From: Hydrogenibacillus sp. | GTDB lineage: Bacteria; Bacillota; Bacilli; Thermicanales; DSM-22653 | DNA: 64,000 bases | Assembly: GCA_014896255.1 (NCBI GenBank) | Contig: JADBKT010000003.1 | Span: forward strand, 3,660 to 67,659 | Direction of reading: 5' to 3' | Shown: one piece after another, positions 2,079-19,973 of the stretch | Layout: each line of letters begins with the position of its first letter | Position numbering within the stretch: the first letter of the stretch is position 1 | The notes under the pieces: model-generated | The model's database searches: none | Told to the model about the DNA's origin: nothing | Seen by the model: only the letters and a program-made list of their open reading frames with translations | Made by a program: the position numbers and the translations under genes

Positions 2079-2591
2079 TTATATCCCCGCTTTCCCTGAA
2101 GTCGCGTCCGAAAGCGATTCGCCCTGCGTGACGTTTTGCATGAGGCGTTCGGCGAGCCGTTCCATCGCCGCTTCGACCTCAGGGCTCAAGCCGAACCCGT
2201 AGTCGACGTCCTTCGCTTCGATCAGGTAAACCGTCACGTCTTCGGGGAATCGCTCTTTGAGCAGCCACCGCCCGACGGCGAGGGCATGATCCCAGCGAAA
2301 ATCGTGCAGGTTTACGCCGGCAAGCGGCGGCGTCTCGGCTTCCTCCCCCGGGAGCTCGAAGATCGTCCCCGGTTCGGCCCCGGTCCGGGCGGCGTCGACG
2401 ATGATCAGGCGCTTGGCATCTTGAATCTGAAACACGACGTCCAACCCGGCGGTGCCGCCGTCCGCCAGGCGGACGCCGGGCGGCGGCCCGAGCGCCCAGA
2501 GCTTCCGGATGAGCGTCGGGCCGACGCCGTCGTCGCGGCGGAGCAAGTTCCCGCAACCGATGATGAGCGTGGACACGTCGACTCCCCTCAT
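2079..2591 (-). CDS. hupD: Hydrogenase maturation endopeptidase (HupD/HybD family)
   Basis: N-terminal IIGCGNLLRRDDGVG, then DGGT, IIVDA and the H motif (NLHDFRWDH). ATG at 2591 overlaps the hucL stop (TGATG); GTG at 2576 is an alternative start. The track ORF extension to 2954 is shifted-frame hucL sequence. Confidence 0.9.
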   Translation of the reverse strand: MRGVDVSTLIIGCGNLLRRDDGVGPTLIRKLWALGPPPGVRLADGGTAGLDVVFQIQDAKRLIIVDAARTGAEPGTIFELPGEEAETPPLAGVNLHDFRWDHALAVGRWLLKERFPEDVTVYLIEAKDVDYGFGLSPEVEAAMERLAERLMQNVTQGESLSDATSGKAGI

Positions 2592-4219
2592 CAGAACTTC
2601 GTCACTTCGTACTTCGCGATCTCTTGCTTGGTCTTCGCGTCGTAGCGTGGACCGTGCAGACGAGGCACGAGTCGAGCTCTGCGCGATGCGGGCGAGCTCC
2701 ACCGGATCTTCGGGATTTCGATCGGCGTGCCGATCATCGCCGTCTCGATCGGCCCCCGCTGATCGTGGCGGTCGCGCGGACCGATGTTCCACGCCGTCGG
2801 CGTGATCACCTGATAGTTTTCGATCTTCCCGTCCTTGATCACGATCCAGTCGGACAGCGCCCGCGGCGGCTTCCGTCGATCCGAAGCCGCGCCCTTCCGA
2901 AGCTCCTTCGGCTTGATGTAGAACTTGTCGTTCAGGTCGATGCGCCGGAGCCACTCCTTGACGCGCAGATAGTACTTCGGCGCCTCGTGCATCCGGGCGA
3001 GGACGCGGACCATGACGCTCGGACCGATTTCCTTCACGATATTGTAGATGAGCGGATCATAGTCCTGGTGCGCTTCGGCGCCAGGCCGGCCGGCGATCAC
3101 CTGGCGCGCCAGCGGCCCCGCTTCCAGCGCGAGCTCGCCGACCCCGGGGACGTCGTAGCGGGGGGCTTTGGCCCACGTGTACTTGCCTTCTTTCGCCCCT
3201 TCCTCCGGATCGATCGGATCGGTGACGCCTTCGAACGGATGGAACGCGCCGCCGCCGCGGAAGAAGGAATGCGTATGATCTTCGCGCACGCGCGCCTGGT
3301 CGAAATCGTGGAAGTTCTCCCCGTCATACACGCCGGAACGGGCGATGAGCGCGCGGTTGCGCCCTTCGATCGTCGGGTAGCGGTACAGATCCGGTTCGAA
3401 GAAGCTACCCGTCGCGAGGAAGCGCCCCGGGCCGCGGCCGTATTGGTCGAGGCCGAGGTCCAAGCTGTAGCGGATAAAGAGGCCGAGGTCGGAATCGCGG
3501 TGTTCGGGCTTTTCCTCCAGCCAGTTGAGGACGTCTCTTCCACGTCTTGTTCTCCAGCCAGCGCTCCACCGAACAGCCGAGCCAGACTTTCTCCAGCCAG
3601 TATTCGCGGTAGTGCTCGAGGATGGAGATCGAGCGCGTGACGCGTCGGAAAGCGTCGGCGCGCACATCACGCCGCCGGGCACCATGAAGCTGGAGGTGGC
3701 CACTGGCCGCCGAAGATGGCGTAGATCTCGACCGGCTTGGCCGATTCGATGACGCCGATTTCGTAGCTCGTGCCCATAGGGCGCCCAGCGCTTCACGACT
3801 TCATCGTACAGCGGCGATTTCTTGTAGTTTTCATGGGTCAGGCCGATGGCAAAGAGCGCGTAAAACCAGCGCGGGATGCTCTGCAGCGTCTCCACCGCCT
3901 GCGCGATGTTCCGGACAAGCGTCGCGTTCGGCGGGACCTCCGTGCTCCAGGCGGTGTCTATGGCATAGACCGCCTTCGTCAAGTGGCTGCCCCCGCAGAT
4001 GCCGCAGATGCGCGGCGTGACGATGAGGCCGGCCTGCGGGTCTTTGCCTTTTAAGATGATCTCAAACCCGCGAAACATCGTCGCTTCCGTCCACGCATCG
4101 ACGACGACGCCGTTTTCGATGGACACGCGGACGTCCAAGTCCCCTTCGACCCGGCCGAGCGAGTGCACCTTGAGATCCTTCCGATCGATCGTCTTGACTT
4201 CGGACCCTTTTTGGCTCAT
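2591..4219 (-). CDS. hucL: [NiFe]-hydrogenase large subunit, group 2a (Huc/HupL type); contains four compensated frameshift segments as sequenced
   Basis: GRVEGD, L1 motif PRICGICGGSH, SSFMVPGGV, YTWAKAPRY, NYQVITPTAWN. The L2 motif DSCLVCTVH is encoded at 2647-2673 but in a shifted frame. A C-terminal extension follows it. Confidence 0.9.
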   Translation of the reverse strand: MSQKGSEVKTIDRKDLKVHSLGRVEGDLDVRVSIENGVVVDAWTEATMFRGFEIILKGKDPQAGLIVTPRICGICGGSHLTKAVYAIDTAWSTEVPPNATLVRNIAQAVETLQSIPRWFYALFAIGLTHENYKKSPLYDEVVKRWAPYGHELRNRRHRIGQAGRDLRHLRRPVATSSFMVPGGVMCAPTLSDASRARSPSSSTTANTGWRKSGSAVRWSAGWRTRRGRDVLNWLEEKPEHRDSDLGLFIRYSLDLGLDQYGRGPGRFLATGSFFEPDLYRYPTIEGRNRALIARSGVYDGENFHDFDQARVREDHTHSFFRGGGAFHPFEGVTDPIDPEEGAKEGKYTWAKAPRYDVPGVGELALEAGPLARQVIAGRPGAEAHQDYDPLIYNIVKEIGPSVMVRVLARMHEAPKYYLRVKEWLRRIDLNDKFYIKPKELRKGAASDRRKPPRALSDWIVIKDGKIENYQVITPTAWNIGPRDRHDQRGPIETAMIGTPIEIPKIRWSSPASRRARLVPRLHGPRYDAKTKQEIAKYEVTKF

Positions 4220-4303
4220 CGTTCTCCACCGCCTTTTCGTATCGTTCTGATGATGATCGTCCTGACGCGATCGCCGTGTGCCGGCATGACCACGCGGATG
4301 ACA

Positions 4304-5275
4304 TCAGGGCACGAACATCTCTTCTTTGGCCCACTTCGGCGCCGCCGCGCGCGACACCGCCGCGCTGATGGAGTAGCTCAAAGCGTCGACGCCCTGCGGC
4401 ACTTCCTTCGGGATCGAGCCCAGCACCTTCTGCGTCTTGAAGACCGTCCCCGGCGCGAGGTCGAAGAACGGGAACTGCGGTTCGGTGCACCCGATGCAGG
4501 GCATCCCGGAGCGCGTCTTCGACGATTGCCGGTTCCAGAGGATGCGGTTGCACGGAGAGTGCGTCAGCGGGCCGCGGCAGCCCTGTTCGTAGAACAGGCA
4601 GCCCTTGCGCGTGCCCTGTCCGAATTCTTCCACCGGCTCCTTCCATTCAAAATATTGCACTCGTGTGCAGCCGGTCTGCGTAAACGTCTTGAAGAACGTC
4701 TGCGGACGCTGCAGTTCATCGAGCTGGACGTCCTCCAGCCGGCCCGTGGCGACGGCCACGAGAATCTGCGTCACCCAATCGGGATGCGCCGGGCAGCCCG
4801 GAATGTTGATCACGGGGAGACCGGCCTTGGAGCGGAAGTTCTTCCCCAAAAACCCGCCGTGCTCGCCTTTTAAGTACTGCAGGCCGACCGACTCCGACGG
4901 ATTCGGCTTCGTCGCCGGGATGCCGCCCCAGCACGCGCAATCGCCGATGGCGACGACAAACTGCGCCTTGTGGGCCAGTTCCCAGATCCAATCTTTTTTC
5001 GGGCGATCGTGGAACATGTCGTAGCGCCCGGTGCCGTTCGGCCCCTGGATCACCGTGCCCTCGAAGACGAAGATGTCGAGCGGGATCTCGTCGTTTAGGA
5101 TCTGATGCACCAGGCGGTGGACCTGCTCGCCGAACTCCATGGAGATGGAGTGGTGATACAGGATGTTGATGCCGAAGTCGCGCACCAGGTCGATCACCGA
5201 AGGCTCATCCGCGTTCAGGAACGACTGCGTGTTGCCGTTACACGCGCCCCCGTGCATCCAGAGGAGATTGGCCAT
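4304..5275 (-). CDS. hucS: [NiFe]-hydrogenase small subunit, group 2a (no Tat signal)
   Basis: Starts MANLLWMHGGACNGNTQS after a GGAGGTG RBS. Motifs GDCACWGG, PGCPAHP, QTGCTR, GCLF..GCRGP, SPCN..PCIGCTEP. Confidence 0.93.
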   Translation of the reverse strand: MANLLWMHGGACNGNTQSFLNADEPSVIDLVRDFGINILYHHSISMEFGEQVHRLVHQILNDEIPLDIFVFEGTVIQGPNGTGRYDMFHDRPKKDWIWELAHKAQFVVAIGDCACWGGIPATKPNPSESVGLQYLKGEHGGFLGKNFRSKAGLPVINIPGCPAHPDWVTQILVAVATGRLEDVQLDELQRPQTFFKTFTQTGCTRVQYFEWKEPVEEFGQGTRKGCLFYEQGCRGPLTHSPCNRILWNRQSSKTRSGMPCIGCTEPQFPFFDLAPGTVFKTQKVLGSIPKEVPQGVDALSYSISAAVSRAAAPKWAKEEMFVP

Positions 5276-5319
5276 ATACCCCGCACCTCCGTCACATGGC
5301 TTGATGGATTTGGATGGAT

Positions 5320-5991
5320 TCATTTGACAAGGGCCTGGCGCGCCGCCTTGAGCCGCGCCACCCACGCGTCCATGCCCGAACCGGTGCGCGCGGACACTTC
5401 GAGGACGGGGATCCCCGGGCGCACGCGCTCCACGGCTTCGATGAAGCGCGCCCGGTCAAACCCGACCGCCTCCGCCAGGTCGATCTTCGTGATCACCGCG
5501 AGATCCGAACTGTTGATGAGCGTCGGGTATTTTTCCGGCTTGTCCTCGCCCTCGGTGACCGAAAAAAGGACGGCGCGCTCGTTTTCTCCGAGGTCATAGC
5601 TGGCCGGGCAGACGAGGTTGCCGACGTTTTCGATGAAGAGATAGTCGAGTTCCGCGAGATTCCATCCTTCGAGCGCTCGGGAGATCATCTCCGCCTCGAG
5701 GTGGCAGACGGTTCCCGTGGTGATCTGGCGTACCGAGGCCCCGCTTTCTTTCAGCCGCTCGGCGTCGTTGTCCGTCGCCAAGTCCCCGACGACCGCCGCC
5801 ACGCGGTAGGAACGGCCCAGCCGGCGGAGCAGTTCGGTGAGCGCCGTCGTCTTTCCCGCGCCGGGGCTGGAGACGAGGTTGACGACGTAGACGCCCGACC
5901 GTTGGAAGCGCTCCCGCAATTCGCGGGCCAAGACGTCGTTTTTCTTGAGCACGTTTTGCCGGACTTCGACGATGCGCGGGGTGATCGTCAC
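5320..5991 (-). CDS. hypB: Hydrogenase nickel incorporation GTPase HypB
   Basis: SSPGAGKTT P-loop, VCHLEA, ENVGNLVCPA, TKID. Confidence 0.95.
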   Translation of the reverse strand: MTITPRIVEVRQNVLKKNDVLARELRERFQRSGVYVVNLVSSPGAGKTTALTELLRRLGRSYRVAAVVGDLATDNDAERLKESGASVRQITTGTVCHLEAEMISRALEGWNLAELDYLFIENVGNLVCPASYDLGENERAVLFSVTEGEDKPEKYPTLINSSDLAVITKIDLAEAVGFDRARFIEAVERVRPGIPVLEVSARTGSGMDAWVARLKAARQALVK

Positions 5992-6021
5992 CGCCTTCGA
6001 CCGCCCTTCCGATTATGGTCC

Positions 6022-6375
6022 TTACGCCTCCTCGACCCCTTCCAGGGCGACGAGCTCGAGTTCCCGCCCGGCGCGGACGTCGCCCGATCGTGTGCCGCAT
6101 TCGGGGCAACGCATCGGGACGGGGGCATCCAGCGTCCGTTCCGCTTGACAAGACGGGCAGAAAATCGTCACCGGCACATCTTCGATGATGAGCGCCGCCC
6201 CTTGGGCCGGCGTGCCCTCCGTGACGACGTCGAAAGCGAACAATAGCGCCTCCTTGACGACGCCGGAGAGGGCGCCGATGCGCACGTGGAGCGCCGTCAG
6301 GCGGCGTAAGCCTTGTGCCTGGGCCGATTCGACGGCCAATTCGACGAGGTTCTGCGCGATCGACAGTTCATGCAT
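6022..6375 (-). CDS. hypA: Hydrogenase nickel metallochaperone HypA
   Basis: MHELSIA N-terminus, two CxxC motifs (CPSC, CPEC), GRELEL. Confidence 0.95.
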   Translation of the reverse strand: MHELSIAQNLVELAVESAQAQGLRRLTALHVRIGALSGVVKEALLFAFDVVTEGTPAQGAALIIEDVPVTIFCPSCQAERTLDAPVPMRCPECGTRSGDVRAGRELELVALEGVEEA

Positions 6376-6898
6376 CGGAAAGCTCGCGCGACAGGTGACG
6401 CGCCAGACTGAAGACGAAGTTGAGCGCCGGCTGCACCTCCGGATCGCTGAGCGCGCGCATGAGGCCGATCAGCCCGACGCGCCTCTGCACCGCCGACGGA
6501 TCGGCCGTCTCCTGGGCCGCGCGCGTCATCGCCCGGGCCACTTTGCCGACCATCGCCACCGAACGCGTATCGAGGACATCGGACTTAAACAGCGCCTGGA
6601 CCTGCGGCGAATCCAAAAACTCCTGCATCTTCCGGCCGGCATTGAGCGCCGTCTCGATTCGGGAAACGTAAGCCGGCGTCTTGAGTCCTGCCCTGAGGGT
6701 CTGGACCAATTCGTTGACCGAATCGGCCAGCTCCGGCCCCCGGGCCAGGAAAGATTCGAGCATGTCGACCAAAAATCCGATCGTCTCCAGCTTGTCGAGC
6801 AACCGGACGAGCTGTTCGATCGTCTTCGGGTCGGACAGCCGTTCCACCAGCACGCGATCGACCGGCATCTCCAGCTGGTCAAGCGCCGCATTCGCCAC
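6368..6898 (-). CDS. DUF1641 family protein (all-helical), first gene of the hydrogenase operon
   Basis: GTG start after an AAAGGAGG RBS. C-terminal GLIGLMRALSDPEVQPALNFVFSLAR is typical of DUF1641. The stop overlaps the hypA start. Confidence 0.75.
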   Translation of the reverse strand: MANAALDQLEMPVDRVLVERLSDPKTIEQLVRLLDKLETIGFLVDMLESFLARGPELADSVNELVQTLRAGLKTPAYVSRIETALNAGRKMQEFLDSPQVQALFKSDVLDTRSVAMVGKVARAMTRAAQETADPSAVQRRVGLIGLMRALSDPEVQPALNFVFSLARHLSRELSDA

Positions 6899-7028
6899 CG
6901 CGATCGACCTCCTTTCGCGAACATGATTGCCAGGCGGCTCACAAGATGCCCTAGGGGGTTCGTTTCATAACTTCTTACAAATTTTTTCTCATATAAATTT
7001 TCGAAACTCACCGCCCCGGTTAATTTTA

Positions 7029-7057
7029 ATTAAATGATAACGCTCCAAAACTGTCAA
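7029..7057 (-). promoter_or_regulatory. sigmaA-type promoter of the hydrogenase operon
   Basis: Minus strand TTGACA (7052-7057), 17 nt spacer, TTTAAT (7029-7034), inside a strongly AT-rich intergenic region. Confidence 0.7.
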
Positions 7058-7083
7058 GCGGTGAAAAATTCATTCTGAAATTC

Positions 7084-8199
7084 TTATTGTAACTGCTTAT
7101 ACAATGATTCGTATTGCGACACGCGCGCTTCGGCCGAAAACAGGCGCGCCACGCGCGCCCGCCCGGCGCGTCCCATGCGCGCGCGCAAATCCGGATCGTC
7201 GAGCAGCCGGCGGACATAAGCGCTCATCGCCTCGACATCGCCGACTTCGGCCAAAAAGCCGGTCTCCCCGTCGGCCACGACTTCGGCGAGGCCGCCGGCG
7301 GCGGTGGCCACGACGGGCGCCTCGCAGGCCATCGCTTCCGCCGCCGCCAGTCCGAAGCTTTCCGTTTCGGAAGGCAGGAGGAAAACGTCGGCGATCGAGT
7401 ACAAGGCCGAAACGTCGTCCACCTTGCCGAGAAAAAGGACGTCTTCTTCGACGCCGAGCGCTTGGGCATCCGTCCTGGCACGGGCAAGCTCCGGCCCGTC
7501 GCCGACCATAAGGAGCCGCGCCCGATGCGTACGACGGACGCCCGCAAAGACCTTCACCGCATCCGTCACGCGTTTGATCGGCCTGAAATTGGACACGTGC
7601 AGGAGGAGGGATTCGCCGTTCGGGGCCAGGTGCCGCCGGAGGACGGCGTCCTCCCGCCGCTTGTAGTGATCCAGATCGACAAAGTTATAAATGACCTCGA
7701 TCGGCCGGTCGATGTCGAACGCCCGCCGCGTCTCCTCGGCGAGGCTGTGCGACACGGCGGTGACCGCATCGCTCTTTTCGATCCCCAGGCGGATCGCGGC
7801 GGTGAGCGAGAGATCATAGGCGTGGATGGAGATGTCGGTGCCGTGCAGCGTCACGACGGTGCGCACCGGGCGGCGCGGGCTCATCGCCCGGGCGAGAAAG
7901 GCGCACGCGGCAAAGGGCACGGCGTAATGGACGTGCAACACGTCGAGTGCGTGGTTTTGGATCACGTCGGCCATTTTGCAGGCTAAGGCGACGTCAAACG
8001 GCGGATAGCGAAACACGTCATAGCTCGGGACGTCGACGACATGCACGACGATGTTTTCTTGAAACGCGCTCAGGCGAAACGGCATCCCGTCGGAAATGAT
8101 GTGCACTTCATGCCCGCGCCGGGCGAGCTTCCGGCCGAGTTCGGTGGCGAGCACGCCGGAACCGCCGACCGAGGCGTAGCACGCGATGCCGATGCGCAC
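7084..8199 (-). CDS. bshA: N-acetyl-alpha-D-glucosaminyl L-malate synthase BshA (GT4)
   Basis: GTG start MRIGIACYASVGGSG, LHVHYAVP, TLHGTD, HVSNFRPIKR, ESFGLAAAEAMAC. Confidence 0.93.
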   Translation of the reverse strand: MRIGIACYASVGGSGVLATELGRKLARRGHEVHIISDGMPFRLSAFQENIVVHVVDVPSYDVFRYPPFDVALACKMADVIQNHALDVLHVHYAVPFAACAFLARAMSPRRPVRTVVTLHGTDISIHAYDLSLTAAIRLGIEKSDAVTAVSHSLAEETRRAFDIDRPIEVIYNFVDLDHYKRREDAVLRRHLAPNGESLLLHVSNFRPIKRVTDAVKVFAGVRRTHRARLLMVGDGPELARARTDAQALGVEEDVLFLGKVDDVSALYSIADVFLLPSETESFGLAAAEAMACEAPVVATAAGGLAEVVADGETGFLAEVGDVEAMSAYVRRLLDDPDLRARMGRAGRARVARLFSAEARVSQYESLYKQLQ

Positions 8200-8269
8200 G
8201 ATGTCTTCACTCCCCGAGAACATTTGCGCCTGGGCGGCTCGGCGCCCATAGAGGCGATGGTGCCGCCGC

Positions 8270-9922
8270 TTAGCGCCAATAGACGAGACGGTGCCGTCCG
8301 TCGAGCGGAAGCGGCGCCTCGAGAAACGGCCGGATCCACGCCACGCCATGGCGGTTGACGAAATGAAAAACGTTCAGCACCCGCTCCTGCGTCTTGCCGA
8401 GCGGGGCGAACATCTGGCGGATGCGGGCAAAGCGGCGCAGGGCGCTGTCGAACTGGGTGCGTTTGGCCGCCAGCGCGCGGGATTGCAGAAAATCGACATG
8501 CCCCAAAATTTTGCGCAAGTTTTCTTCTCCCAGCGGGCCAAGCCCCTTTTCCATCGCCCCGACTTCCGCGATGAGCGGCTCGTAGAGCGCGCGAATGTCC
8601 GCTTTGACCGCTTCAAAGCGCGCCTCCAGCGACTGCACGTCGGACTGCGAGCGGAACCAGGCCGCCTGGCACGCCTCGATGTAGCCGGCATCTCCGACCG
8701 CCCTGGCGGCCTCGCAGCCGAAAGCGGCAAGCGCTTTCTCCAGCGCCGGCTCGACGACGGTCGCCTGAAAGCGCGGGACGAGCGGCGGAACGCGCATGGT
8801 CATGAAATGGAACGCCTCGCGCAGTTCCGCCCAGTAGGCGACCTCGCTCGGCCCGAGGACGGCGGCCAGCACCGGGAACAAATATTCTTGCATGAGCGGG
8901 CGGGTCGCGACGTTGGCCGAAAAGCGTTCCGGATGGGCCGCGACGAGCGCCGTCAGGGCCTCGCGGTCGAAGCGCAGGCGCGCACGCCGGTCGAAAAACG
9001 CGCCGTCCTCGCCGTACAATAAGACGCGCTCTCCGCCTTCATGCAAAAAGATATTCGCGCTTTCCGGGGCGATCTCGAGCTGCGGCGCGTAACCGAGCGC
9101 GCGGACGGCCGCCTCCCCGTCCAGAAGCGCCCTCCGGAGGCCTTCCGCCTCTTCGATCAGACGGCGGAACAGGGGCCGCTCGAGGCGGCGCACGTTCGGG
9201 TCGTCGCTGTCGATGAGGACGAGCCCCTCTGAGCCAAGCAGCCAGGCAAAGACCCGCGCGAAGACGTCGACGAGAGTCCTGGACGCGGCGACGATGGACG
9301 AAAGCCGCTCGGCGATCGCCGGTTTGAATTCGCTGTCCGGAAGGGTCTCCAGGAACACGTCGAGCGCCGCGCGGAGGGCGTCTTGCGGGATCTCCAGGCG
9401 GCTTACCGCCGTCCGGCGGTCAGGGTGGGGATGCGGGATGGCGATTTTTTGGATGTCGAGCTCCGGGGTCAGGCTGTAGACGTGGTTCACTTCGTCGAAG
9501 TCGTGATCCTCTCCGGCGATCCAGAAAACGGGAACGACGGGCCGGCCGAGCCGCTCCGCGAGCTTTCGCGCCAGCTGGATGACCGTGAGCGCCTTATAGA
9601 TCACGAACAACGGTCCCGTAAAAAGCCCCGCCTGCTGTCCGCCGACGACGGCCAGCGCCTCGCCGCGCGAAAGCGCCGCGATGTTCGCCAGAGCCGCTTC
9701 GCCGTTTTCGACCTTCCGGTTATAGGCAAAAAGCGCCGCGCCGAGCGCCTCGCGATCGGCGCGCGGGTAATGCGCTTCCATGAGTTCGGCGGCGCGCTTT
9801 TCCCACGTCGCCTCCGCCCACGGATCATGGTCGTAGCGGGCGGAAAAAAGCGCCGCATCGCGCGCGACGTAAGCGGCGTACAGCGGCGGCGACAACTTCA
9901 ACCGACAGTCGACGATGTCCAT
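8270..9922 (-). CDS. bshC: Bacillithiol biosynthesis cysteine-adding enzyme BshC
   Basis: GQQAGLFTGPLFVIYKA, FWIAGEDHDFDE, RPLMQEYLFP, GPSEVAYW, QER. Confidence 0.93.
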   Translation of the reverse strand: MDIVDCRLKLSPPLYAAYVARDAALFSARYDHDPWAEATWEKRAAELMEAHYPRADREALGAALFAYNRKVENGEAALANIAALSRGEALAVVGGQQAGLFTGPLFVIYKALTVIQLARKLAERLGRPVVPVFWIAGEDHDFDEVNHVYSLTPELDIQKIAIPHPHPDRRTAVSRLEIPQDALRAALDVFLETLPDSEFKPAIAERLSSIVAASRTLVDVFARVFAWLLGSEGLVLIDSDDPNVRRLERPLFRRLIEEAEGLRRALLDGEAAVRALGYAPQLEIAPESANIFLHEGGERVLLYGEDGAFFDRRARLRFDREALTALVAAHPERFSANVATRPLMQEYLFPVLAAVLGPSEVAYWAELREAFHFMTMRVPPLVPRFQATVVEPALEKALAAFGCEAARAVGDAGYIEACQAAWFRSQSDVQSLEARFEAVKADIRALYEPLIAEVGAMEKGLGPLGEENLRKILGHVDFLQSRALAAKRTQFDSALRRFARIRQMFAPLGKTQERVLNVFHFVNRHGVAWIRPFLEAPLPLDGRHRLVYWR

Positions 9923-9955
9923 GACCGACTTACCGTCTCCCTCCGGCAATCGATT

Positions 9956-11086
9956 TTAATTCTGCATCACAAAATCCCGCTCGGCGTACTCGCCGTCTTG
10001 AAAGATGCGCAAAATCTCGTATTTTGTGTTTCGCTGCGCCGGAATGCGCCCCGCCTCGCGGATGAGCCGGAGGATCAAATTCGTGTTCACCTTATACGTG
10101 CACGCCGCCGCGGAGACGACGTTTTCCTCCATCATCGTCGAGCCGAAGTCGTTGCAGCCGTAGGAGAGCGACAATTTGCCGACTTCCGGCCCCATCGTCA
10201 CCCACGACGTCTGGAAGTTCGGGATGTTGTCGATCATGAGGCGGGCGATGGCCAGATTTTTGAGATATTCTTCCGGACCGATCTTCTTCGCCGGAAGATG
10301 GGTGTTCTCCGGCTGGAACGTCCAGAGGATGAACGCGAGGTACCCGACCGCGCCGATCGCCCGGGCGCGGTCTTGCGACTCGCGGATGCGGATCATATGT
10401 AAGAGCCGCTCCTCGATCGACTCCCCGAAGCCGATGACCATCGTCGCCGTCGTGGAAAACCCGACGCGGTGCGCCGTCTCCATGATGTCGATCCATTCTT
10501 TCCACGAGCCTTTGAGGCGGCTGATCTTCATCCGCGTCCGGTCGTCGAGGATCTCCGCGCCGGCGCCGGGGAGCGAATCGAGCCCCGCCGCCTTGAGTTC
10601 ACGGAGCACCTCCTCGATCGAAAGGCCGGAGACGACGCTCATCTTCTTGATCTCCGCCGTGGAGAAGGAATGCATGTGAATGTTCGGAAAGCGCGCCTTG
10701 ATCTTGCGCAGCAGGTCGAGATAATACGAAAACGAAAGATGCGGATGCGTCCCGCCCTGCATGAGGATTTCCGTGCCGCCGACGTCGACCGTCTCTTGAA
10801 TTTTTTGCAAGATCGCGTCGTCGTCCAGCACGTATGCTTCCGGATGGCCCGCCGGGCGGTAAAACGCGCAAAAGCGGCAATACGTGTCGCAGACGTTCGA
10901 ATAGTTGATGTTCCGCCCGATGACGAACGTCGTGATCGGAAATTCCGGGTGGAACGAGCGCATCTTCTCATGCGCCGCGGCGCCGATCTTTTCGACCGCG
11001 TCCGAGGCGTACAGCTCAAATCCGTCTTCGATCGAAAGGCGCCCGCCGCGCCGGGCGCGCTCGAGAATCGCATCGATCTTGGCCAA
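9956..11086 (-). CDS. mqnC: Cyclic dehypoxanthine futalosine synthase MqnC (radical SAM, menaquinone futalosine pathway)
   Basis: NINYSNVCDTYCRFCAF (CxxxCxxC), MQGG, PGAGAEIL, GCNDFGSTMMEENVV. TTG start at 11086 after a GGGGGAG RBS. Confidence 0.85.
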   Translation of the reverse strand: MAKIDAILERARRGGRLSIEDGFELYASDAVEKIGAAAHEKMRSFHPEFPITTFVIGRNINYSNVCDTYCRFCAFYRPAGHPEAYVLDDDAILQKIQETVDVGGTEILMQGGTHPHLSFSYYLDLLRKIKARFPNIHMHSFSTAEIKKMSVVSGLSIEEVLRELKAAGLDSLPGAGAEILDDRTRMKISRLKGSWKEWIDIMETAHRVGFSTTATMVIGFGESIEERLLHMIRIRESQDRARAIGAVGYLAFILWTFQPENTHLPAKKIGPEEYLKNLAIARLMIDNIPNFQTSWVTMGPEVGKLSLSYGCNDFGSTMMEENVVSAAACTYKVNTNLILRLIREAGRIPAQRNTKYEILRIFQDGEYAERDFVMQN

Positions 11087-11170
11087 CGTATCTCCCCCGT
11101 TCCGTCCACCGCGTCTACATCCGGACCGCCGAGCCTCTTCAGGCGCCGAGCAAGCGCTCCGCCTGAGCCC

Positions 11171-11199
11171 ATTGTAACACAAGGCGGAAGACGTTCCAA
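11171..11199 (-). promoter_or_regulatory. sigmaA-type promoter of mqnC-bshC-bshA
   Basis: TTGGAA, 17 nt spacer, TG-T-TACAAT (extended -10). It overlaps the GTG used by the ORF track, which supports the later start. Confidence 0.55.
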
Positions 11200-11262
11200 A
11201 GCATACCGCCGAAGGCCGCCTACGCTTACGGAGCCCCGCCGTCGGATCCGCGCGATCGCTCC

Positions 11263-12207
11263 CTACCGGACCGCGTTTCTCCGCCGATTCGGCCCCCCCA
11301 GGAAGATCACATCGCTTGACGCACGGATGCGCTCGACGATGCGGTGCGCCTTCAGTTCGTCGATGCCGCCCCGCGCCGTCTCGCTGTACAGGTCGGTGAG
11401 GTCGTCCGGCGACAGGTTCGAGGTAAACAGCGTCGGGCGGCCGTTTTGAGAACGGGCGCTGAGCAGCGGGAGCAGCACCTCATCCCGCGCCCAGGGCGTG
11501 AGCTGCTCGGCGCCGACGTCGTCCAGGATGAGCACGTCGACCGATTCCAGCTCGCGCATTTTGTCCAAAAACAGGCCGTCTTCAAAGCCCATGCGCAGCT
11601 CGCGAAAAAGTGCCGGCATGTGCACGTACAGGACGGATACGCCGAATTCGACGAGATGATTGGCGACCGCCCCCATCAAATAGCTCTTGCCGACGCCGAA
11701 CGGCCCATAGACGTACAATCCCCGCACGGAGGCATTTCGGCCGTGAATGAAACGTTCGACGAACGCTTGGGCGGCCTCGATCGCCTTGGCGTTGTGCGCA
11801 TCGCGCTTAAGGTCCGCAAAACGCACGCGGGAGAGCTCCACAGGGATGGCGATCGTTTTGAACAGTTTTTTTCGACGCGCTTCGGCCTGCGCCTGCCGTT
11901 CATACGCGCACGGCGCGTAATCGAAGGTGATGTGCCCGCCCGCCGCGCGCCGCGGAACCGGTACATGCCCGCGAAAGGCGTGCGTGCACGCCGAAAGCCC
12001 CGGGCAACGCTCACAGGCGGCCGTTTCCTCCAAGTAGCGAAGGACCGCGACGCGCGAACGATCGATCGCCGCTTCATCGACCTCAAGTTCGCGCATGAGC
12101 GTCTGAACGCGCGGGTCGGCATGCAGCCGCTTCGCCGTCTCCCGCCGTGACGGGTCGTCCGCGGCCAGGCCGAGCTCGAACAATGCCGATCGGAGCGGTT
12201 TAAACAT
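11263..12207 (-). CDS. dnaI: Primosomal helicase loader DnaI
   Basis: N-terminal Zn ligands (CERC..C..H), Walker A GPFGVGKS, LILDDVGAE, TSNL. Confidence 0.92.
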   Translation of the reverse strand: MFKPLRSALFELGLAADDPSRRETAKRLHADPRVQTLMRELEVDEAAIDRSRVAVLRYLEETAACERCPGLSACTHAFRGHVPVPRRAAGGHITFDYAPCAYERQAQAEARRKKLFKTIAIPVELSRVRFADLKRDAHNAKAIEAAQAFVERFIHGRNASVRGLYVYGPFGVGKSYLMGAVANHLVEFGVSVLYVHMPALFRELRMGFEDGLFLDKMRELESVDVLILDDVGAEQLTPWARDEVLLPLLSARSQNGRPTLFTSNLSPDDLTDLYSETARGGIDELKAHRIVERIRASSDVIFLGGPNRRRNAVR

Positions 12208-13690
12208 CGTCCGTCACCTCCGCCCGGGATCCGGTCTCCAGGGCACGCTCCGCCTCCAGTTGGGCGAGGATGTAGCTCGGGAGCCGTCGGTGCGGTTTGG
12301 CGCGACGCGGCGCTTCAGCCGACGCGGCATCCGCCGTTTCGGCGTTCCGAGCCCCCGTGCCCTTTTGCCGCCGTGCGGCATGTCTGAGGTATTCCCGACG
12401 GGCATAGGCGAGCGCTTCTTCCGCCGTCCGAAAGCCCTTGCGTTTCCAGCTCGCGGCGATCTTTTCGGTAAAGGCGCGCGGAAATTTGTGATCTTGGACG
12501 AGGAGGACATAATCGATGAGCACGTTCACCACTTCCGACGGCAAGCCGATGTCTTCCAAAACCGTCTTGACGAGCCGTTCGTCCGCCGGACTGAGCTCCC
12601 CGCCTCCCTGGTAATTGCGCAAAAGTTCATACGGCGAGACCGACTTGAGGTAAATGAGGTGCTGTTCAAAACGCTTCCGGCCGTCTTCGGCATCGGCCCT
12701 CTCCCGTCCGCGGGTGCCGCCGGGGGCGGGATCCTGCTCCGGAGGAGCGGCGGCTTGCGCCTGCGAATCGTCCGGGTCGAACGACGCCGGCCGTCCTCCG
12801 CCGATCGGTTGCCTCTCGCCGGAAAGCGATCGTCCGCGCACCTTTTGCCAGATCGCGGCAAGCGTCCGAAAACGATCCGCGTCGATCGTTCCGGTCGACG
12901 GATCATACGCATCCCGGACGAGATACAACAGTTGCTCGATGTCCAGTCCATAGCGGGATTGCCATTCTTGAAGCGTCCGGATGAACGCCTCATCGAATAC
13001 CGGCGGGCGCGCGACGTCGGTGAAGCGCGCCCGAAGCCGGAGGGGGTCGAGCGGCTCGGCCCCGGCTTGAAGCGAGATCTTGACCGGATGGACGGCTTCT
13101 CCTCCCGGCGAGCGGCCGAACCGTCTCAGGCGCGCGTTCGCCGTCTCCACCGCCCGTCGCGCAAGCGGATAGGCCGGTGAAGCAGGCGTGACGATGAGCT
13201 CGGTCGGCGCCACTTCGCGAAAGGCCTCGGAAAAGGCGGCCGTCACCTCTTCTCCGGTCAAAACGGCCTCGTCGTCGAGCAGGCGATAACGCCGAAGCAG
13301 CCGTTCATACGCCGTCTGACCGATCCGTCCCAGCAAGAGCGCGACGAGCACTTCGCTCTCAACAAAACGTTCCGGAACGAGCGGCGGTAGAGCTTGCAGC
13401 GCATAACGGCGCATACGGCGGTCGAAAAACGTCCGAAGCAGGCCGACGCCCTCAAGCCGTCGGCGGGCATCGAGAAACGCCGCGGACTCTCGCGCATCCC
13501 AACCGAGACGGAGGAAAAACGAGCGCTCCGACTCCGGCGCTCCGCCGAGGCGGCTGTCGATGAGCGCGATGTAGAGGGCGTAAGCGCTCCGGCCGATGAT
13601 CGGCAAATACCAATCGGCGAGCGCCGCGCGCTCCGCCGCCGAAAGCTCGGGCGACGATTCCACGGTGTACTCGATCTCCGGCGTCGGCAT
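12200..13690 (-). CDS. dnaB: Replication initiation / helicase loading protein DnaB (Bacillus type, DnaD-like domains)
   Basis: YLPIIGRSAYALY, RRRLEGVGLL, VVNVLIDYVLL, IAASWKRKG. Directly upstream of dnaI with overlap. Confidence 0.85.
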   Translation of the reverse strand: MPTPEIEYTVESSPELSAAERAALADWYLPIIGRSAYALYIALIDSRLGGAPESERSFFLRLGWDARESAAFLDARRRLEGVGLLRTFFDRRMRRYALQALPPLVPERFVESEVLVALLLGRIGQTAYERLLRRYRLLDDEAVLTGEEVTAAFSEAFREVAPTELIVTPASPAYPLARRAVETANARLRRFGRSPGGEAVHPVKISLQAGAEPLDPLRLRARFTDVARPPVFDEAFIRTLQEWQSRYGLDIEQLLYLVRDAYDPSTGTIDADRFRTLAAIWQKVRGRSLSGERQPIGGGRPASFDPDDSQAQAAAPPEQDPAPGGTRGRERADAEDGRKRFEQHLIYLKSVSPYELLRNYQGGGELSPADERLVKTVLEDIGLPSEVVNVLIDYVLLVQDHKFPRAFTEKIAASWKRKGFRTAEEALAYARREYLRHAARRQKGTGARNAETADAASAEAPRRAKPHRRLPSYILAQLEAERALETGSRAEVTDDV

Positions 13691-13734
13691 CCTCTCTTCC
13701 CCCCTGGTCCGCGTCACGCTTCAGCATAAAGCGG

Positions 13735-15426
13735 TCACGGCGCCGCTTTCCACCACTGTTCGGCATTCAACCGCTCGCCCAAACGGACCATCTCAACGCC
13801 GTGCATCCCCGGCGCGACGGCGACATATGCCTCCGGACGAAGGAGCGGGATGAGCGGGGCCGCTTCGGCGACGGAGCGAAACGCTTCGCGAAGCGCCGGC
13901 GCATCGATTTCCCCCGGTATCGCCTCATAGGCAGCCTTGAGCGCCCGGTCGACGGCATCGTCCGCATAGTGCATGACGTTCAATCCCAATCGGGCGATCG
14001 TATGCGCCTTCCCCAGATAACGCCACCACTCGCCCGGTTCCGAGACATCCGCGAGCGGCCAGAGAAAAAGCGGCGCACCGTGACCGCTCATCGTCTCGGC
14101 GTAAAACGCCTCGTGCGGGAGAGGCTTTTCGCTCACCGCGTAGCCCGACGTCCCAAGCACGTCAGCAAGCGCCGGCGCCAAAAGCGCGGCGTACGGTTGA
14201 TCACGATCATACGCCAGATCGCCGAGCGCCAGTCGGGAGTCGGCCCCTTTCGGCGCATTTGCCCCGTCCGACTGCTCCATGAGCGCGTGTCCGGGCGGAA
14301 AATAGCCGGTCTCCGGACGCGCCGCGAACTCCCCGGCTTCGATCGCCGCGACCAGCGGCCGCCGATCGATCGTCGCCAACTTCCGCCGAACGTCGTCCGG
14401 AATGCGCGTCACGTCGGCGGCGAGATACAGCGCGTACGGAAGCGGGACGCGCATCAACCGAAAATCGTTCGGAAGCGCCGGTTTTTTCAACGAAATGACG
14501 ACATCGTAAGCCGCCACAGGCGCCTCGTGCCCGGCATGTCCGTCGTCAGGGCCGAGCGTCCCGAAGGTGAATTCCAGCGCGTCGGCGTACGCCGCATCCC
14601 CGGCTTTCGTCGATGCCCGCTCCAGCTCCAGCCGGCCTTCCGCGGCCACGACGACGCGGTAGGCGCCGCTTACGGGCACCTCGCCGGCGCGGATCCGCTC
14701 GGCCAATGCCTCGACATCGGCGCGCCGCGCGATCTTTGGGACAGCGGCGTGAGGGAACAGGGGCGCGGTCAACGCGCGGAAAAAGAGCGCCGTCGGGTGC
14801 GTCGCGCGAAGGACAATCCAGTCGCCGTCGGTCACAACGCCGAGCACGTCTTCTCCTTTTCCGCTGCGGTAGGCCGAAGCGCCGTCCAGGGCCGACAAAT
14901 GATCGCGGAATACCCCGGTATAAAACGGGCTCAAATAGAGCGCCAACGTCCGCCTGACGTCCAGATCGGTGATCGGTTGCCCGTCGCTCCAACGCGCCCC
15001 ATCAAGACGGAAGCGAACGGTGACCGCCCCGTCTGCACCGCGCTCGACGCGGACGTCTTGGGCGAGATCGCCGACCCACCGCCCGCGTTCATCGTATCGA
15101 AACAAACCCCGATAGGCGAGCGCCCAGTAGGGCGACGGGCGCACCGCCTTCGCGCTGAGCCCCAGCGGATCCGCCTCGATGGGCTCGGCCGTAAGCACGC
15201 GGATCACCCCGCCGCGCACCGGGACGGCCGATTCCGATGCTGGCCTCCCGTCCTGCGCGAAGCGATCCGCCTCCCCGCTCGATCGGGCCTCCGGGTTCCA
15301 CAGACAGCCGCCGAGCATGACCATCGACAGCAAAAAGAGCGCGGCGGCCGCTCCCCTACGCCACCGCGAACCCGCCTGAGCGCCGCGCCTCTCTATCCGC
15401 TTCCCCTGTATCCGCATCTTCGGCAT
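13735..15426 (-). CDS. ABC transporter substrate-binding lipoprotein, family 5-like (orphan)
   Basis: Lipobox MLGG|C after a hydrophobic stretch. YRGLF, GDLA, RWSDGQPITDLDV resemble SBP family 5. Start is uncertain (15426, or 15516 overlapping the nrdR stop). Confidence 0.7.
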   Translation of the reverse strand: MPKMRIQGKRIERRGAQAGSRWRRGAAAALFLLSMVMLGGCLWNPEARSSGEADRFAQDGRPASESAVPVRGGVIRVLTAEPIEADPLGLSAKAVRPSPYWALAYRGLFRYDERGRWVGDLAQDVRVERGADGAVTVRFRLDGARWSDGQPITDLDVRRTLALYLSPFYTGVFRDHLSALDGASAYRSGKGEDVLGVVTDGDWIVLRATHPTALFFRALTAPLFPHAAVPKIARRADVEALAERIRAGEVPVSGAYRVVVAAEGRLELERASTKAGDAAYADALEFTFGTLGPDDGHAGHEAPVAAYDVVISLKKPALPNDFRLMRVPLPYALYLAADVTRIPDDVRRKLATIDRRPLVAAIEAGEFAARPETGYFPPGHALMEQSDGANAPKGADSRLALGDLAYDRDQPYAALLAPALADVLGTSGYAVSEKPLPHEAFYAETMSGHGAPLFLWPLADVSEPGEWWRYLGKAHTIARLGLNVMHYADDAVDRALKAAYEAIPGEIDAPALREAFRSVAEAAPLIPLLRPEAYVAVAPGMHGVEMVRLGERLNAEQWWKAAP

Positions 15427-15515
15427 GTGCGCCTCGGCCACCTTCGTCCCGCTCGTCTTCGGCCGGCGCCGCGTCGTTTCCCGCCTCATCGTTCGCCGCA
15501 TGCGCATGATCCGCA

Positions 15516-15992
15516 TTACGTGCCGCGGTCGGCTTCAAGGCGCAACCCTTCGAGGCGCCGGAGTTCTTGCAAAAACCCGTTCACGTCGTCAAACTCACGA
15601 TAAACGCTGGCAAAGCGCACATACGCCACCTGATCGACGTCGATCAAGCGCCGGAGCACCGCCTCGCCGATCTGCGTGCTCGTGATTTCCCGGAGCCCCG
15701 CGCCGCGGGCCTCGCGTTCGATGTCCTCGGCGATGGCCTGCATCGTCTCCAGGCTCACCGGACGCTTTTCACAGGCGCGCATCAGCCCTCGGACGATTTT
15801 ATCCGATTGGAACGGTTCTCGTGTACCGCTCTTTTTGATCACCACGAGCGGCGCCATTTCGACCGTTTCAAACGTCGTAAACCGCTCTTGGCACCGCGTG
15901 CATTCCCGCCGGCGGCGGATCGCCCGGCCGTCTTGCGCCTGGCGGCTTTCCAAAACCCGCGTGTCGTCGTTGCCGCAATACGGGCAACGCAT
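15516..15992 (-). CDS. nrdR: Transcriptional repressor NrdR
   Basis: MRCPYC...RRRRECTRCQERFTTFE, ATP-cone, VAYVRFASVY. Confidence 0.97.
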   Translation of the reverse strand: MRCPYCGNDDTRVLESRQAQDGRAIRRRRECTRCQERFTTFETVEMAPLVVIKKSGTREPFQSDKIVRGLMRACEKRPVSLETMQAIAEDIEREARGAGLREITSTQIGEAVLRRLIDVDQVAYVRFASVYREFDDVNGFLQELRRLEGLRLEADRGT

Positions 15993-16019
15993 CGCCTTCG
16001 CTCCTTTGCCTTTTCGTCC

Positions 16020-16028
16020 ATTATAGCA
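16020..16028 (-). promoter_or_regulatory. Extended -10 promoter of nrdR
   Basis: TG-C-TATAAT about 28 nt upstream of the nrdR ATG. Confidence 0.6.
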
Positions 16029-16044
16029 CAGGCGAAAACGGTCG

Positions 16045-16076
16045 AAAAAAGAAAAACCGTCGGGTGTCGCCCGACG
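16045..16076 (-). terminator. Intrinsic terminator after pstB
   Basis: Hairpin CGTCGGG-CGACA-CCCGACG followed by GTTTTTCTTTTTT. Confidence 0.8.
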
Positions 16077-16094
16077 TCGAACCCCCGCCGTCGC

Positions 16095-16871
16095 TCACCC
16101 AAAGCGGCCGGAGATGTAGTCTTCGGTTTCTTTGCGCTTTGGCCGTTGGAACAACTCCGCCGTCGGCGCGTGCTCGATGAGCCGACCGTTCAAGAAAAAC
16201 GCCGTATCGTCCGAAATACGCGCCGCTTGCTGCATGTTGTGCGTGACGATGACGACCGTGTATGCGTTCCTCAGCTCATCGATCAAATCTTCAATGCGTG
16301 TCGTTGACGACGGGTCGAGGGCGCTCGTCGGCTCGTCCATCAAAATGATCTCCGGATCGACGGCCAGCACCCGGGCGATGACGAGCCGCTGCTGCTGTCC
16401 TCCGGAAAGCGCCAGCGCCGAAGCGTTCAGGCGGTCTTTGACCTCGTCCCACAGCGCCGCCGCCTTGAGGCTCCGTTCGACGATTTCGTCCAGCCGCGCC
16501 CGATCGCGAATGCCGTGAATGCGCGGGCCGTAGGCGACGTTGTCGTAAATGCTCAAGGGAAACGGATTCGGGCGCTGGAAGACCATGCCGATCTTTTTGC
16601 GCACCTTAACGACGTCAACGTTCGGCGCGTAGATGTTCCGGCCGTGCCAAAGCACTTCGCCTTCGACACGCGCGCCGTCGACCAAGTCGTTCATGCGGTT
16701 CAACGTCCATAAAAACGTCGACTTGCCGCTTCCGGACGGGCCGATGAGGGCCAATACACCTCCGGTCGGCACGTCCAACGTGATGTCGAACAAGGCCTGC
16801 TTTTTCCCATAAAAAAAGTTCAGTCCGCGCACCGAAAGTGCAGGCGTTCCTTGCGGTACCGCTTGAGGCAA
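16095..16871 (-). CDS. pstB: Phosphate ABC transporter ATP-binding protein PstB (second copy)
   Basis: [46 protein letters not shown]. Confidence 0.95.
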
Positions 16872-16898
16872 CGCGATCCCTCGCCTTAACGAGCAATA

Positions 16899-17777: not shown

Positions 17778-17954
17778 ACCACGCTTTCCTTAGTTTCGCT
17801 CGGCTCAAGCGTCGTACACCGGCCGCCCGCGATTCGCGGCCCGGACGTCGTCTTCGACACGTTTCGCCGCCCGCATATGCTTGTCACTATATAGTTTACC
17901 ATCTCGGCATCGGAGGGTGGAAGCGGCAAAACATGAAAAAAGAGCAGCGACGGT

Positions 17955-19768: not shown

Positions 19769-19804
19769 CACATCCGTCCTTTCTTCCGTCGTCGTTCCCT
19801 GTGT

Positions 19805-19834
19805 ATTATTGTCGAATGAGACGGAAGTCGTCAA
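19805..19834 (-). promoter_or_regulatory. Putative internal sigmaA promoter for pstC
   Basis: TTGACG, 18 nt spacer, AATAAT, located downstream of the pstS terminator. Confidence 0.45.
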
Positions 19835-19887
19835 GTCACACATCCGCGACGGCGGTTCGATGCGGCGTGAGACATCCATCGCGATAC

Positions 19888-19917: not shown

Positions 19918-19973
19918 CTTCTTTCGCTCAACCGGACGAACCGTCCTCAAAGCCGCCGGTCGATCGGGTGACG

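Follow-up and report, generated by a model that had tools for sequence, protein, structure and literature searches.

Ten indels that leave the hydrogenase gene hucL of a Hydrogenibacillus metagenome-assembled genome open but partly out of frame are most likely assembly errors

In the window analysed here, that is, the whole stretch of 64,000 nucleotides of Hydrogenibacillus DNA, the gene hucL (2591..4219, minus strand) is written as an open ORF of 542 codons carrying ten indels, and these indels as written are most likely an error of assembly or sequence and not a real biological feature. By sequence membership, the predicted product is a group 2a (Huc/cyanobacterial-type uptake) [NiFe]-hydrogenase large subunit. 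We consider it highly likely that the indels are technical in origin, namely leftover errors in a metagenome assembly gap that was patched with noisy long reads, and the true gene of the strain would most likely be an intact, ordinary Huc-type large subunit. A local artefact had also been the first choice of the initial annotation, and this choice fits the selection seen on the canonical frame, the gap between the short-read contigs, the public contigs of appreciable depth, which carry none of the ten indels, and the published gap-filling procedure. Judging from depths, taxonomy, and sample type, the window very probably belongs to the metagenome-assembled genome (MAG) Hydrogenibacillus sp. 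Bu13, which was obtained from a gas vent at a coal fire.

The initial annotation had described hucL as open for 542 codons yet off frame in four segments, and translation of the alternative frames gives exactly the peptides that it quoted, these being MGTSYEIGVIESAKPVEIYAIFGGQWP, VTRSISILEHYREYWLEKVWLGCSVERWLENKTW, EGRGFGSTEAA, PEDPVELARIAQS, and DSCLVCTVH. In the protein alignment, the frame-0 product differs from all 8 homologues only within these four segments. The indels were placed by aligning the hucL DNA to that of H. schlegelii MA48, with the positions later refined, and all of the following lie on the minus strand. Segment 1 (3696..3779) holds the conserved GTSYEIGVIESAKPVEIYAIFGGQWP in frame +1 and is bounded by two deletions, one of -2 at about 3776-3779 and the other of -1 at 3695, while segment 2 (3537..3644) holds the conserved VTRSISILEHYREYWLEKVWLGCSVERWLENKTW in frame +2 between a +2 insertion at about 3641-3644, where CG is duplicated, and a +1 insertion at 3537. 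Segment 3 (2859..2899) has the conserved EGRGFGSTEAA in frame +2 and contains -1 deletions at 2899 (CC>C), 2864 (CCC>CC), and 2859 (GGGG>GGG), and segment 4 (2645..2720) has NPEDPVELARIAQS in frame +2, followed by DSCLVCTVH in frame +1, with -1 deletions at 2720 (CC>C), 2674 (a single A), and 2645 (CC>C). The DNA alignment thus bears out the earlier count of about ten indels in clusters of -2/-1, +2/+1, -1/-1/-1, and -1/-1/-1, each of which sums to a multiple of 3 (net -3, +3, -3, and -3). It had also been claimed that most indels shorten homopolymers, and this holds for five of the eight deletions (CC>C, for example), although the cited changes of AAAA to AAA and of TT to T were not found; the two remaining indels are insertions, including the CG dinucleotide duplication. 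Across the affected stretch of hucL, the indel rate is about 0.6%. A predominance of deletions together with homopolymer contraction is the typical error spectrum of nanopore R9.4 reads.

The N-terminal metal-ligand motif RxCGxCxxxH is present as RICGICGGSH (residues 70-79) and is invariant in the alignments, but the C-terminal motif D(P/S)CxxCxxH is absent from frame 0, whose end reads ...SRRARLVPRLHGPRY and contains no cysteine. DSCLVCTVH lies in frame +1, at about 2646-2672, and returns when the indels are read through; we attribute its absence from frame 0 to sequence error and not to the organism. Of the four Ni-Fe cysteine ligands, two sit in this motif, whose histidine lies at the endopeptidase cleavage site. 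The profile PF00374 is matched at 195.5 bits in frame 0 vs. 275.1 bits in the read-through, and of the 508 profile positions, the match covers those up to 486 in the former and up to 508 in the latter. The best PDB matches of HucL are the structures 7UTD and 7UUS of Mycobacterium smegmatis Huc, with E about 1e-185, and the group 1 enzymes stand far behind, at about 1e-47.

Since the indel groups each regain the frame and the ORF stays open throughout, a biological decoding could be imagined in which programmed ribosomal frameshifting or other recoding yields a normal protein. We regard this as extremely improbable, and programmed frameshifting was rejected, given that it would take about ten shifts, of the four types +1, +2, -1, and -2, in a single gene, with no slippery motif common to the indel sites. 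The initial annotation had named homologues with the same scrambled segments as what would overturn a frameshift interpretation, and among about 2000 homologues checked there was nothing similar. Furthermore, when ten indels of the same sizes were placed randomly over the same span, hucL stayed open in 1-3% of simulations, a chance that is not negligible for an accidentally open ORF, even if it also counts against an artefact made of ten random errors. The observed in-frame fraction of 0.81 was reached in 1.7-8.6% of simulations. The earlier remark that the restoration of frame is odd was therefore a fair one, but statistically weak, as the simulated chance is 1-9%; being only mildly beyond chance, it was rejected as evidence of a frame-aware process or of selection. 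Frame-aware polishing, for instance with proovframe, was likewise rejected, because the window is free of Ns and the published methods contain no such step (PMC10215811).

The canonical frame bears a signature of purifying selection throughout the shifted segments. Inside the four segments, 24 substitutions separate hucL from that of H. schlegelii, and 19 of them are at canonical third positions, including 7 of 9 in segment 1 and all 5 in segment 2. Over the whole gene, the codon differences between the read-through and the H. schlegelii HucL number 88 synonymous and 29 non-synonymous, at 95% protein identity and 92.4% DNA identity, and the read-through keeps all columns that are invariant in 12 homologues, bar one. 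These figures bear directly on the possibility that the indels are real and that hucL was inactivated very recently in a Hydrogenibacillus strain of low abundance, where it would be a young pseudogene, which we find unlikely. A strain with a dominant hydrogen oxidiser as its neighbour, or one that turns to CO, could perhaps tolerate such a loss, and the Bu13 MAG is reported to possess, as another source of energy, an aerobic CO dehydrogenase (PMC10215811). Nevertheless, the decay would have had to proceed by indels alone to leave such third-position and codon counts and a single departure from the invariant residues. The caveat of a decaying allele, already raised in the initial annotation, still stands at this low probability, with the substitution pattern and the intact accessory genes against it; for the collapsed paralogue proposed alongside it, we found nothing specific in favour.

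The accessory genes adjoin hucL in the same order as in the H. schlegelii locus, and all of them are intact. They comprise, on the minus strand, the small subunit gene hucS (4304..5275; PF01058 and PF14720; 95% protein identity to the H. schlegelii subunit), the hupD/HycI-type maturation endopeptidase gene (2079..2591; PF01750), and the nickel-insertion maturation genes hypB (5320-5991) and hypA (6022-6375). The start of hupD overlaps the stop of hucL (TGATG). As had been stated earlier, hucS is clean, with no frame-shifting indel in the DNA alignment, and frame-shifting indels looked for in the hupD alignment were not found either. Given that hucS, hupD, hypA, and hypB would be useless without a working large subunit, their integrity supports an artefact in hucL and argues against a genuine inactivation. 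Twelve neighbouring genes each align in one frame, and the flanking genes have 54-85% protein identity to those of H. schlegelii. The statement that nothing similar occurs in the other genes of the window also held: a model that tracks the reading frame, applied to 39 ORFs that make up 77% of the window, found internal out-and-back frame excursions of at least 75 nt in hucL alone, though short compensated shifts are possible elsewhere, since segment 3, of 41 nt, escaped the model and segment 4 was detected only at the lowest penalty. Pfam matches, mostly spanning their profiles end to end, were obtained for 25 of the 28 other ORFs scanned, and no broken gene was found among these 28. Further candidates for broken genes at 47.7-52 kb, 22-24.5 kb, and 10326-10538 (a dip in contig cover) were rejected as ordinary intact genes.

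The defect coincides exactly with the one stretch of the region for which the likely source sample yields no near-identical short-read contig, which again speaks against real indels. We compared the window with Logan contigs of several public runs, among them X2, a run of the likely source metagenome, and X8, which belongs to the same sample and is noisy in indels. Contigs of X2 at least 99% like the window cover 1500-2462 and 4205-6000, the latter including all of hucS, at depths of 115-133, and between them, from 2463 to 4204, there is no such contig. In a control stretch (6001-26000), the X2 cover is near-unbroken, each contig showing 0-2 differences, none of them an indel. The fraction of the 31-mers of the window that occur in X2 is 0.23 over 2400-4400, 0.85 over hucS, and 0.91-0.99 elsewhere. 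The stretch 2463-4204 thus appears to be an interval left open between short-read contigs and closed with long reads. Within it, the indels are confined to two zones (2645-2899 and 3537-3779) where the k-mers private to the window form short runs, and there are none in the private run of 550 k-mers at 2927-3506; this arrangement of indel zones and a clean private run fits a patchwork fill.

At all ten sites, the canonical form is found in contigs of X1, X2, X8, X3, and X7, which are not surely from the strain of the window, and there is one exception, a 3.55x unitig in X8 that has the +1 of the window at 3537, where the canonical form stands at 152.6x. This unitig may be taken in favour of real indels, as may the fact that at most sites no contig positively shows a canonical allele specific to Bu13; because Logan contigs drop rare variants, the lack of the window's indels in public contigs is not proof against them. 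On the other hand, X8 carries low-depth +/-1 and +/-2 indel variants of its own and a fixed extra G at 2882 vs. X2, and from depths, taxonomy, and sample type we infer that it is the MinION run. An 82-nt, 84x contig of X1 shares the alleles of the window at 2600 and 2609 and has the canonical base at 2645, which goes against a real deletion there, but it may come from another strain; as strain-specific evidence it was rejected, being indistinguishable from a Bu28-like allele. In the unlikely event that the indels are real, a rare population with a 30-fold commoner, hydrogen-oxidising congener at its side would just have lost its only Huc-type hydrogenase by a burst of clustered small indels, its substitution patterns and all accessory genes being as yet unaffected. 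hucL would then show either a loss of function caught early, under competitive release, or the work of a mutational process that locally favours indels, and so recent a loss would be of modest interest.

In X2 and X1, hucL occurs as no fewer than three or four alleles, with depths of about 3900, 384, 178, and 120 in X2, and it is also conceivable that hucL is a chimera or consensus of such co-occurring alleles from collapsed strains, with the indels arising from merged alignments without any long reads. The differing depths of these alleles would suit that explanation, as would some blocks of the window's hucL that are 98-99% identical to H. schlegelii and an identity at four-fold sites of 0.81 in hucL, somewhat above the 0.74 of hucS. 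However, all alleles seen are free of indels relative to each other at these sites, and therefore their merging should not make indels; homopolymer deletions are not normally produced by short-read assemblers, and a 74x contig of X1, a 99.5% match to the window over 3089-3456, shows a genuine single allele there. We hold such a chimera to be improbable, if anything slightly more so than a genuine inactivation.

Leftover errors from a long-read patch, which we prefer, fit the assembly procedure published for what appears to be this sample, Bu22-1 of BioProject PRJNA663466 (PMC10215811). HiSeq and MinION R9.4 reads were assembled by hybrid metaSPAdes, followed by npScarf scaffolding and gap filling, and Pilon polishing is described for Flye contigs only, Bu13 not being among the four Flye-derived MAGs (PMC10215811). 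Table S2 of the same paper lists Bu13 at 123.9x, with 18 contigs, 62.4% GC, and the genus Hydrogenibacillus, and Bu28 at 3663x, and the X2 depths of 115-138 and 3870-4060 agree with these two values. We suggest that the congener H. schlegelii Bu28, about 30 times commoner in the sample than Bu13 and with a hucL that would be about 92% identical and have many exact k-mers in common, prevented the short-read graph from carrying the rare strain through this gene, so that the Bu13 short-read contigs would have stopped on either side of hucL. The two contigs would then have been joined by MinION R9.4 reads, through either npScarf or the long-read gap closure of hybrid metaSPAdes, and the nanopore consensus would have stayed wherever the bridge took no short-read contig, retaining about 0.6% of indel errors, chiefly one-base deletions in short homopolymers, in a stretch for which short-read polishing is not described in the Bu13 pipeline. 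The H512R change at 2689 might then be an error as well. The paper says that gaps were filled by Illumina consensus from the assembly graph (PMC10215811), and therefore, that nanopore consensus was left in place is our inference. According to its authors, npScarf fills a gap with a consensus built from the bridging reads, for which repeat contigs are substituted only where they align (PMC5321748), and an independent benchmark placed Unicycler and SPAdes slightly ahead of npScarf in assembly accuracy (PMC5481147). The argument from a tangled graph is incomplete, since hucS, whose similarity to the abundant relative is about that of hucL, was nonetheless cleanly assembled.

The value of this case lies chiefly in quality control. 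A gene caller would output a full-length 542-residue "hydrogenase" without its active-site cysteines and with about 100 wrong residues, and a frameshift-aware pipeline would call hucL a pseudogene instead. Either annotation could pollute protein databases and mislead the metabolic inference made from the MAG, whose hydrogen oxidation is predicted, and no more than predicted, in PMC10215811 and rests on hucL. The general trap is that genes in hybrid metagenome assemblies that are highly similar to those of a much commoner relative are where long-read patches and their errors land.

Compared with known systems, the indels resemble the residual errors of hybrid or long-read assemblies, such as those in npScarf or hybridSPAdes gaps, which are likewise local, are mostly one-base homopolymer deletions, and lie where short-read contigs are missing. 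Unlike the usual errors of this kind, those of hucL, whose long-read origin we deduce, cancel in frame, and for that reason the gene is not split and a gene caller would emit a full-length wrong protein. The closest sequences found are the HucL proteins of H. schlegelii MA48, also the best match in the genome-contig search, and of Hydrogenibacillus sp. N12; their locus is syntenic with that of the window, whose organism is another species, and both lack its ten indels. A search for records of exactly the HucS and HucL proteins of the window yielded none. The best solved relative is the Huc of M. smegmatis (PDB 7UTD, 7UUR, 7UUS, and 8DQV), which aligns over residues 15-500 and shares with the window the locus order of small subunit, large subunit, and endopeptidase, with hyp genes nearby. 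The window HucL also shares RICGICGGSH with this enzyme and, in the read-through, DSCLVCTVH, whereas in frame 0 it lacks the C-terminal cysteine pair and has three other conserved stretches scrambled, a difference from M. smegmatis Huc that most likely is not biological.

The hydrogenase large-subunit gene of the window, hucL (2591-4219, minus strand), is an open reading frame of 542 codons encoding a [NiFe]-hydrogenase large subunit, and in a protein alignment its product as written (frame 0) differs from all eight homologues only within four short segments. Three-frame translation recovered the conserved residues of exactly these four segments in the other two frames, and the alternative frames give the peptides quoted in the initial annotation, which had described four frame-restoring shifted segments; these are therefore confirmed, and DNA alignment gives ten indels. 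We placed these indels by alignment to the syntenic locus of H. schlegelii MA48, two of them being refined by homopolymer context. All lie on the minus strand in four groups: deletions of two nucleotides at ~3779 and one at 3695 (net -3); insertions of two nucleotides at 3644, where CG is duplicated, and one at 3537 (net +3); single deletions at 2899 (CC to C), 2864 (CCC to CC) and 2859 (GGGG to GGG) (net -3); and single deletions at 2720 (CC to C), 2674 (a single A) and 2645 (CC to C) (net -3), which together explain the length of 542 vs. 544 residues. Deletions make up eight of the ten, five of them shortening a homopolymer, and ten events per roughly 1.1-1.7 kb correspond to ~0.6-0.9%; indels at this rate, mainly deletions with homopolymer shortening, are the residue typical of an unpolished R9.4 consensus. 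The last group destroys the C-terminal motif DSCLVCTVH, invariant across the homologues aligned with the read-through (the translation with the ten indels undone), and, given that two of the four cysteines that bind the Ni-Fe centre come from this motif in the family, the frame-0 protein could not, judging from its sequence, be an active hydrogenase.

The divergence from H. schlegelii follows the canonical frame, that of the conserved indel-free gene, whose third positions take 19 of the 24 substitutions within the four shifted segments and 93 of the 123 mismatches in the whole of hucL. The read-through protein shares 95% identity with H. schlegelii HucL (a first-pass version showed 88 synonymous and 29 non-synonymous codon differences), agrees with all columns invariant in 12 homologues with the sole exception of H512R, and raises the Pfam score from 195.5 bits in frame 0 to 275.1 bits, the match then extending to the profile end. 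Selection has therefore acted on the canonical frame during practically the whole divergence, and the indels must be very recent if they are real at all.

The repeated restoration of the frame is odd, yet it provides no evidence of selection or of a frame-aware process, and it is less remarkable than it seems because mostly -1 events cycle the frame anyway; the in-frame intervals between indels (4 of 10) equal the chance expectation. When the same ten sizes were set at random positions in the same 1134-nt span, 3.3% of simulations preserved a reading frame running through to the native stop, as did 1.2% with random indel sizes. An in-frame fraction as high as the observed 0.81 occurred in 1.7% of simulations with randomised positions, and shuffling the order of sizes alone gave it in 8.6%. 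Programmed recoding of hucL is scarcely conceivable: some ten events, of four different kinds and sharing no motif, would be required.

The organism of the window is present in two coal metagenome runs, X1 and X2, the latter probably from the source sample. Of the 31-mers sampled from 30-38 kb of the window, a share of 0.99 occurs in X2 and 0.92 in X1; from 7-12 kb the shares are 0.91 and 0.81. Over 2400-4400 they drop to 0.23 in X2 and 0.29 in X1, with hucS alone at 0.85 in X2. X2 contigs with at least 99% identity to the window, at a depth of 115-133, span 1500-2462 and 4205-6000, including all of hucS, and none was found over 2463-4204; the control interval 6001-26000 had near-continuous X2 cover at a depth of 121-138, in indel-free contigs with 0-2 differences each. 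Both runs are dominated by a relative (depth ~3900 in X2 and ~1500 in X1) whose hucL is 92-94% identical to that of the window. An X1 contig of 368 nt at 74x covers 3089-3456 with 99.5% identity; no X2 contig at least 98% like the window was found within 2463-4204, although the strain is deeper in that run (~120x), possibly by graph simplification beside the 3900x relative.

At all ten indel sites the canonical form appears in every contig of X1, X2 and X8, the last being another run of the X2 sample, and of two H. schlegelii isolate runs. Site 3537 is the single exception: there X8 contains a 60-nt unitig identical to the window at a depth of 3.55 alongside the canonical form at 152.6; these Logan contigs lose rare variants and thus reveal presence, not absence, so that the indel-free state of the rare strain is unprovable from them alone. 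X8 is indel-noisy, with further low-depth variants (+TC at 2598, +C at 2749, -2 at 3506) and several indel variants at 1-3%. An extra G at 2882 is fixed in its dominant-strain contig, whereas the 3900x contig of X2, a run of that sample too, lacks it; this extra G and the 1-3% variants are consistent with a noisy long-read data set. A real and very recent pseudogene is quite improbable, given that it would need ten indels without accompanying relaxation of substitutions, intact accessory genes, and a chance overlap with the hole in short-read cover.

A published study probably covers the sample from which the window was assembled. A coal-fire gas-vent sample was sequenced by HiSeq and MinION R9.4, followed by hybrid metaSPAdes assembly, binning, and then npScarf scaffolding and gap-filling of contigs, with Pilon polishing described for a separate Flye assembly only, the source of four other MAGs (PMC10215811). 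Table S2 of that study lists Bu28, an H. schlegelii MAG, at 3663x and 32.7% of the metagenome, and Bu13, a Hydrogenibacillus sp. MAG, at 123.9x with 18 contigs, 1.92 Mb and 62.4% GC; Bu13 has 70% AAI to MA48 and a group 2a hydrogenase in Table 2 (PMC10215811). The window has 63.9% GC, and its neighbour proteins are 54-85% identical to those of H. schlegelii. As the depths and other properties of the MAGs agree with X2 and the window, we infer that the window belongs to Bu13, that X2 is the HiSeq run and that X8 is the MinION run. In npScarf, a gap first takes the consensus of bridging nanopore reads, and repeat contigs then substitute where aligned (PMC5321748); in an independent benchmark, npScarf assemblies fell slightly short of those of Unicycler and SPAdes in accuracy (PMC5481147).

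The gene of the region most similar to the abundant congener is hucL, with many exact 31-mers in common, because of which the route of the rare strain through the short-read graph would break in hucL; long reads would then bridge the contigs, and short-read pieces could be put back only where long enough or shared. In two zones (2645-2899 and 3537-3779), window-private k-mers are broken into short runs of 29-121, and a single long run of 550 k-mers occupies 2927-3506. All ten indels lie within the two short-run zones and none in the long run, and the chance that ten random events in the 1742-nt hole miss the 550-k-mer block is ~0.02 by arithmetic from the coordinates. A chimera of co-occurring hucL alleles, made with no long reads involved, is very improbable and leaves the indels unexplained, all alleles seen being collinear at these sites. 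The hucL indels are thus very probably errors of an unpolished long-read consensus in a bridged short-read gap, and the feature is most likely not biological. The local sequencing, polishing or assembly artefact favoured at first as the likeliest cause is supported by selection on the canonical frame, the missing short-read cover at hucL and the long-read gap-filling published for the matching MAG.

Two further observations concern this locus. At position 2689 (read-through codon 512), just upstream of the C-terminal cysteine motif, His is replaced by Arg (CAC to CGC, in PVELA[H/R]IAQSYDSC); all public contigs carry the His codon, and the change may be genuine variation or one more error, a substitution, within the patched stretch. 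Four-fold-site identity to MA48 is 0.74 for hucS, 0.81 for hucL and 0.76 for hupD (all three within 2079-5275) and 0.48-0.62 for eight flanking genes (377-2000 and 5320-11086), with protein identities of 95%, 95% and 85.5% vs. 54-83%. Strong codon bias could account for this, as could a recent exchange of the huc structural genes among species of Hydrogenibacillus, and in hucL it could partly be fill-in with pieces of the abundant strain.

As far as could be tested, hucL is the only broken gene in the window. No frame-shifting indels relative to H. schlegelii were found in hucS or hupD, and twelve H. schlegelii neighbour proteins searched against the window by tblastn all matched in a single frame, hucL alone being broken. 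A frame tracker based on the codon usage of the window was applied to 39 ORFs, which make up 77% of its length, and found internal out-and-back excursions of at least 75 nt in hucL only, the remaining switches sitting at ORF ends; it missed the 41-nt third segment (2859-2899), and very short compensated shifts elsewhere may escape it. Pfam matches, mostly of full profile length, were obtained in 25 of 28 other ORFs scanned, including PolA, DnaE, pyruvate kinase, PFK, AccA, citrate synthase, ICDH, MDH, GAPDH and Fpg.

Near-identical X2 cover dips slightly at 10326-10538, within a radical-SAM CofH-like gene, where a gap-free alignment of 376 aa with the H. schlegelii protein rules out a second frameshift problem. 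The 523-codon open frame at 22348-23919 (plus), with no Pfam match and GC flat over codon positions (0.62, 0.65, 0.67), is probably a mechanical product of high GC content and overlaps real genes, fpg (23552-24529, minus) among them. The adjacent, overlapping ORFs at 48962-50866 and 50731-51972 (plus), each with a YheC/D-like ATP-grasp domain (PF14398, E ~1e-44), are a tandem paralogue pair. At 13738-15534 (minus), with a 667-codon ORF antisense to it, lies a homologue of an H. schlegelii SBP_bac_5 solute-binding protein with a sub-threshold Pfam match (26.8 bits, profile 15-155 of 368); as the tracker found no internal frame shift and X2 contigs back the sequence, this is probably plain divergence.

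As a case, hucL is a warning to anyone annotating this MAG or, more generally, hybrid metagenome assemblies. In other respects the gene encodes a typical group 2a (Huc-type) hydrogenase subunit in an equally ordinary hucS-hucL-hupD-hyp context, and the sole defining family feature that it fails as written, because of the indels, is the in-frame C-terminal cysteine motif. Its nearest database proteins are the HucL of Hydrogenibacillus schlegelii and of Hydrogenibacillus sp. N12, each of 544 aa, and its closest solved relative is the large subunit of M. smegmatis Huc (7UTD/7UUS, E ~1e-185), far ahead of the group 1 enzymes (E ~1e-47).
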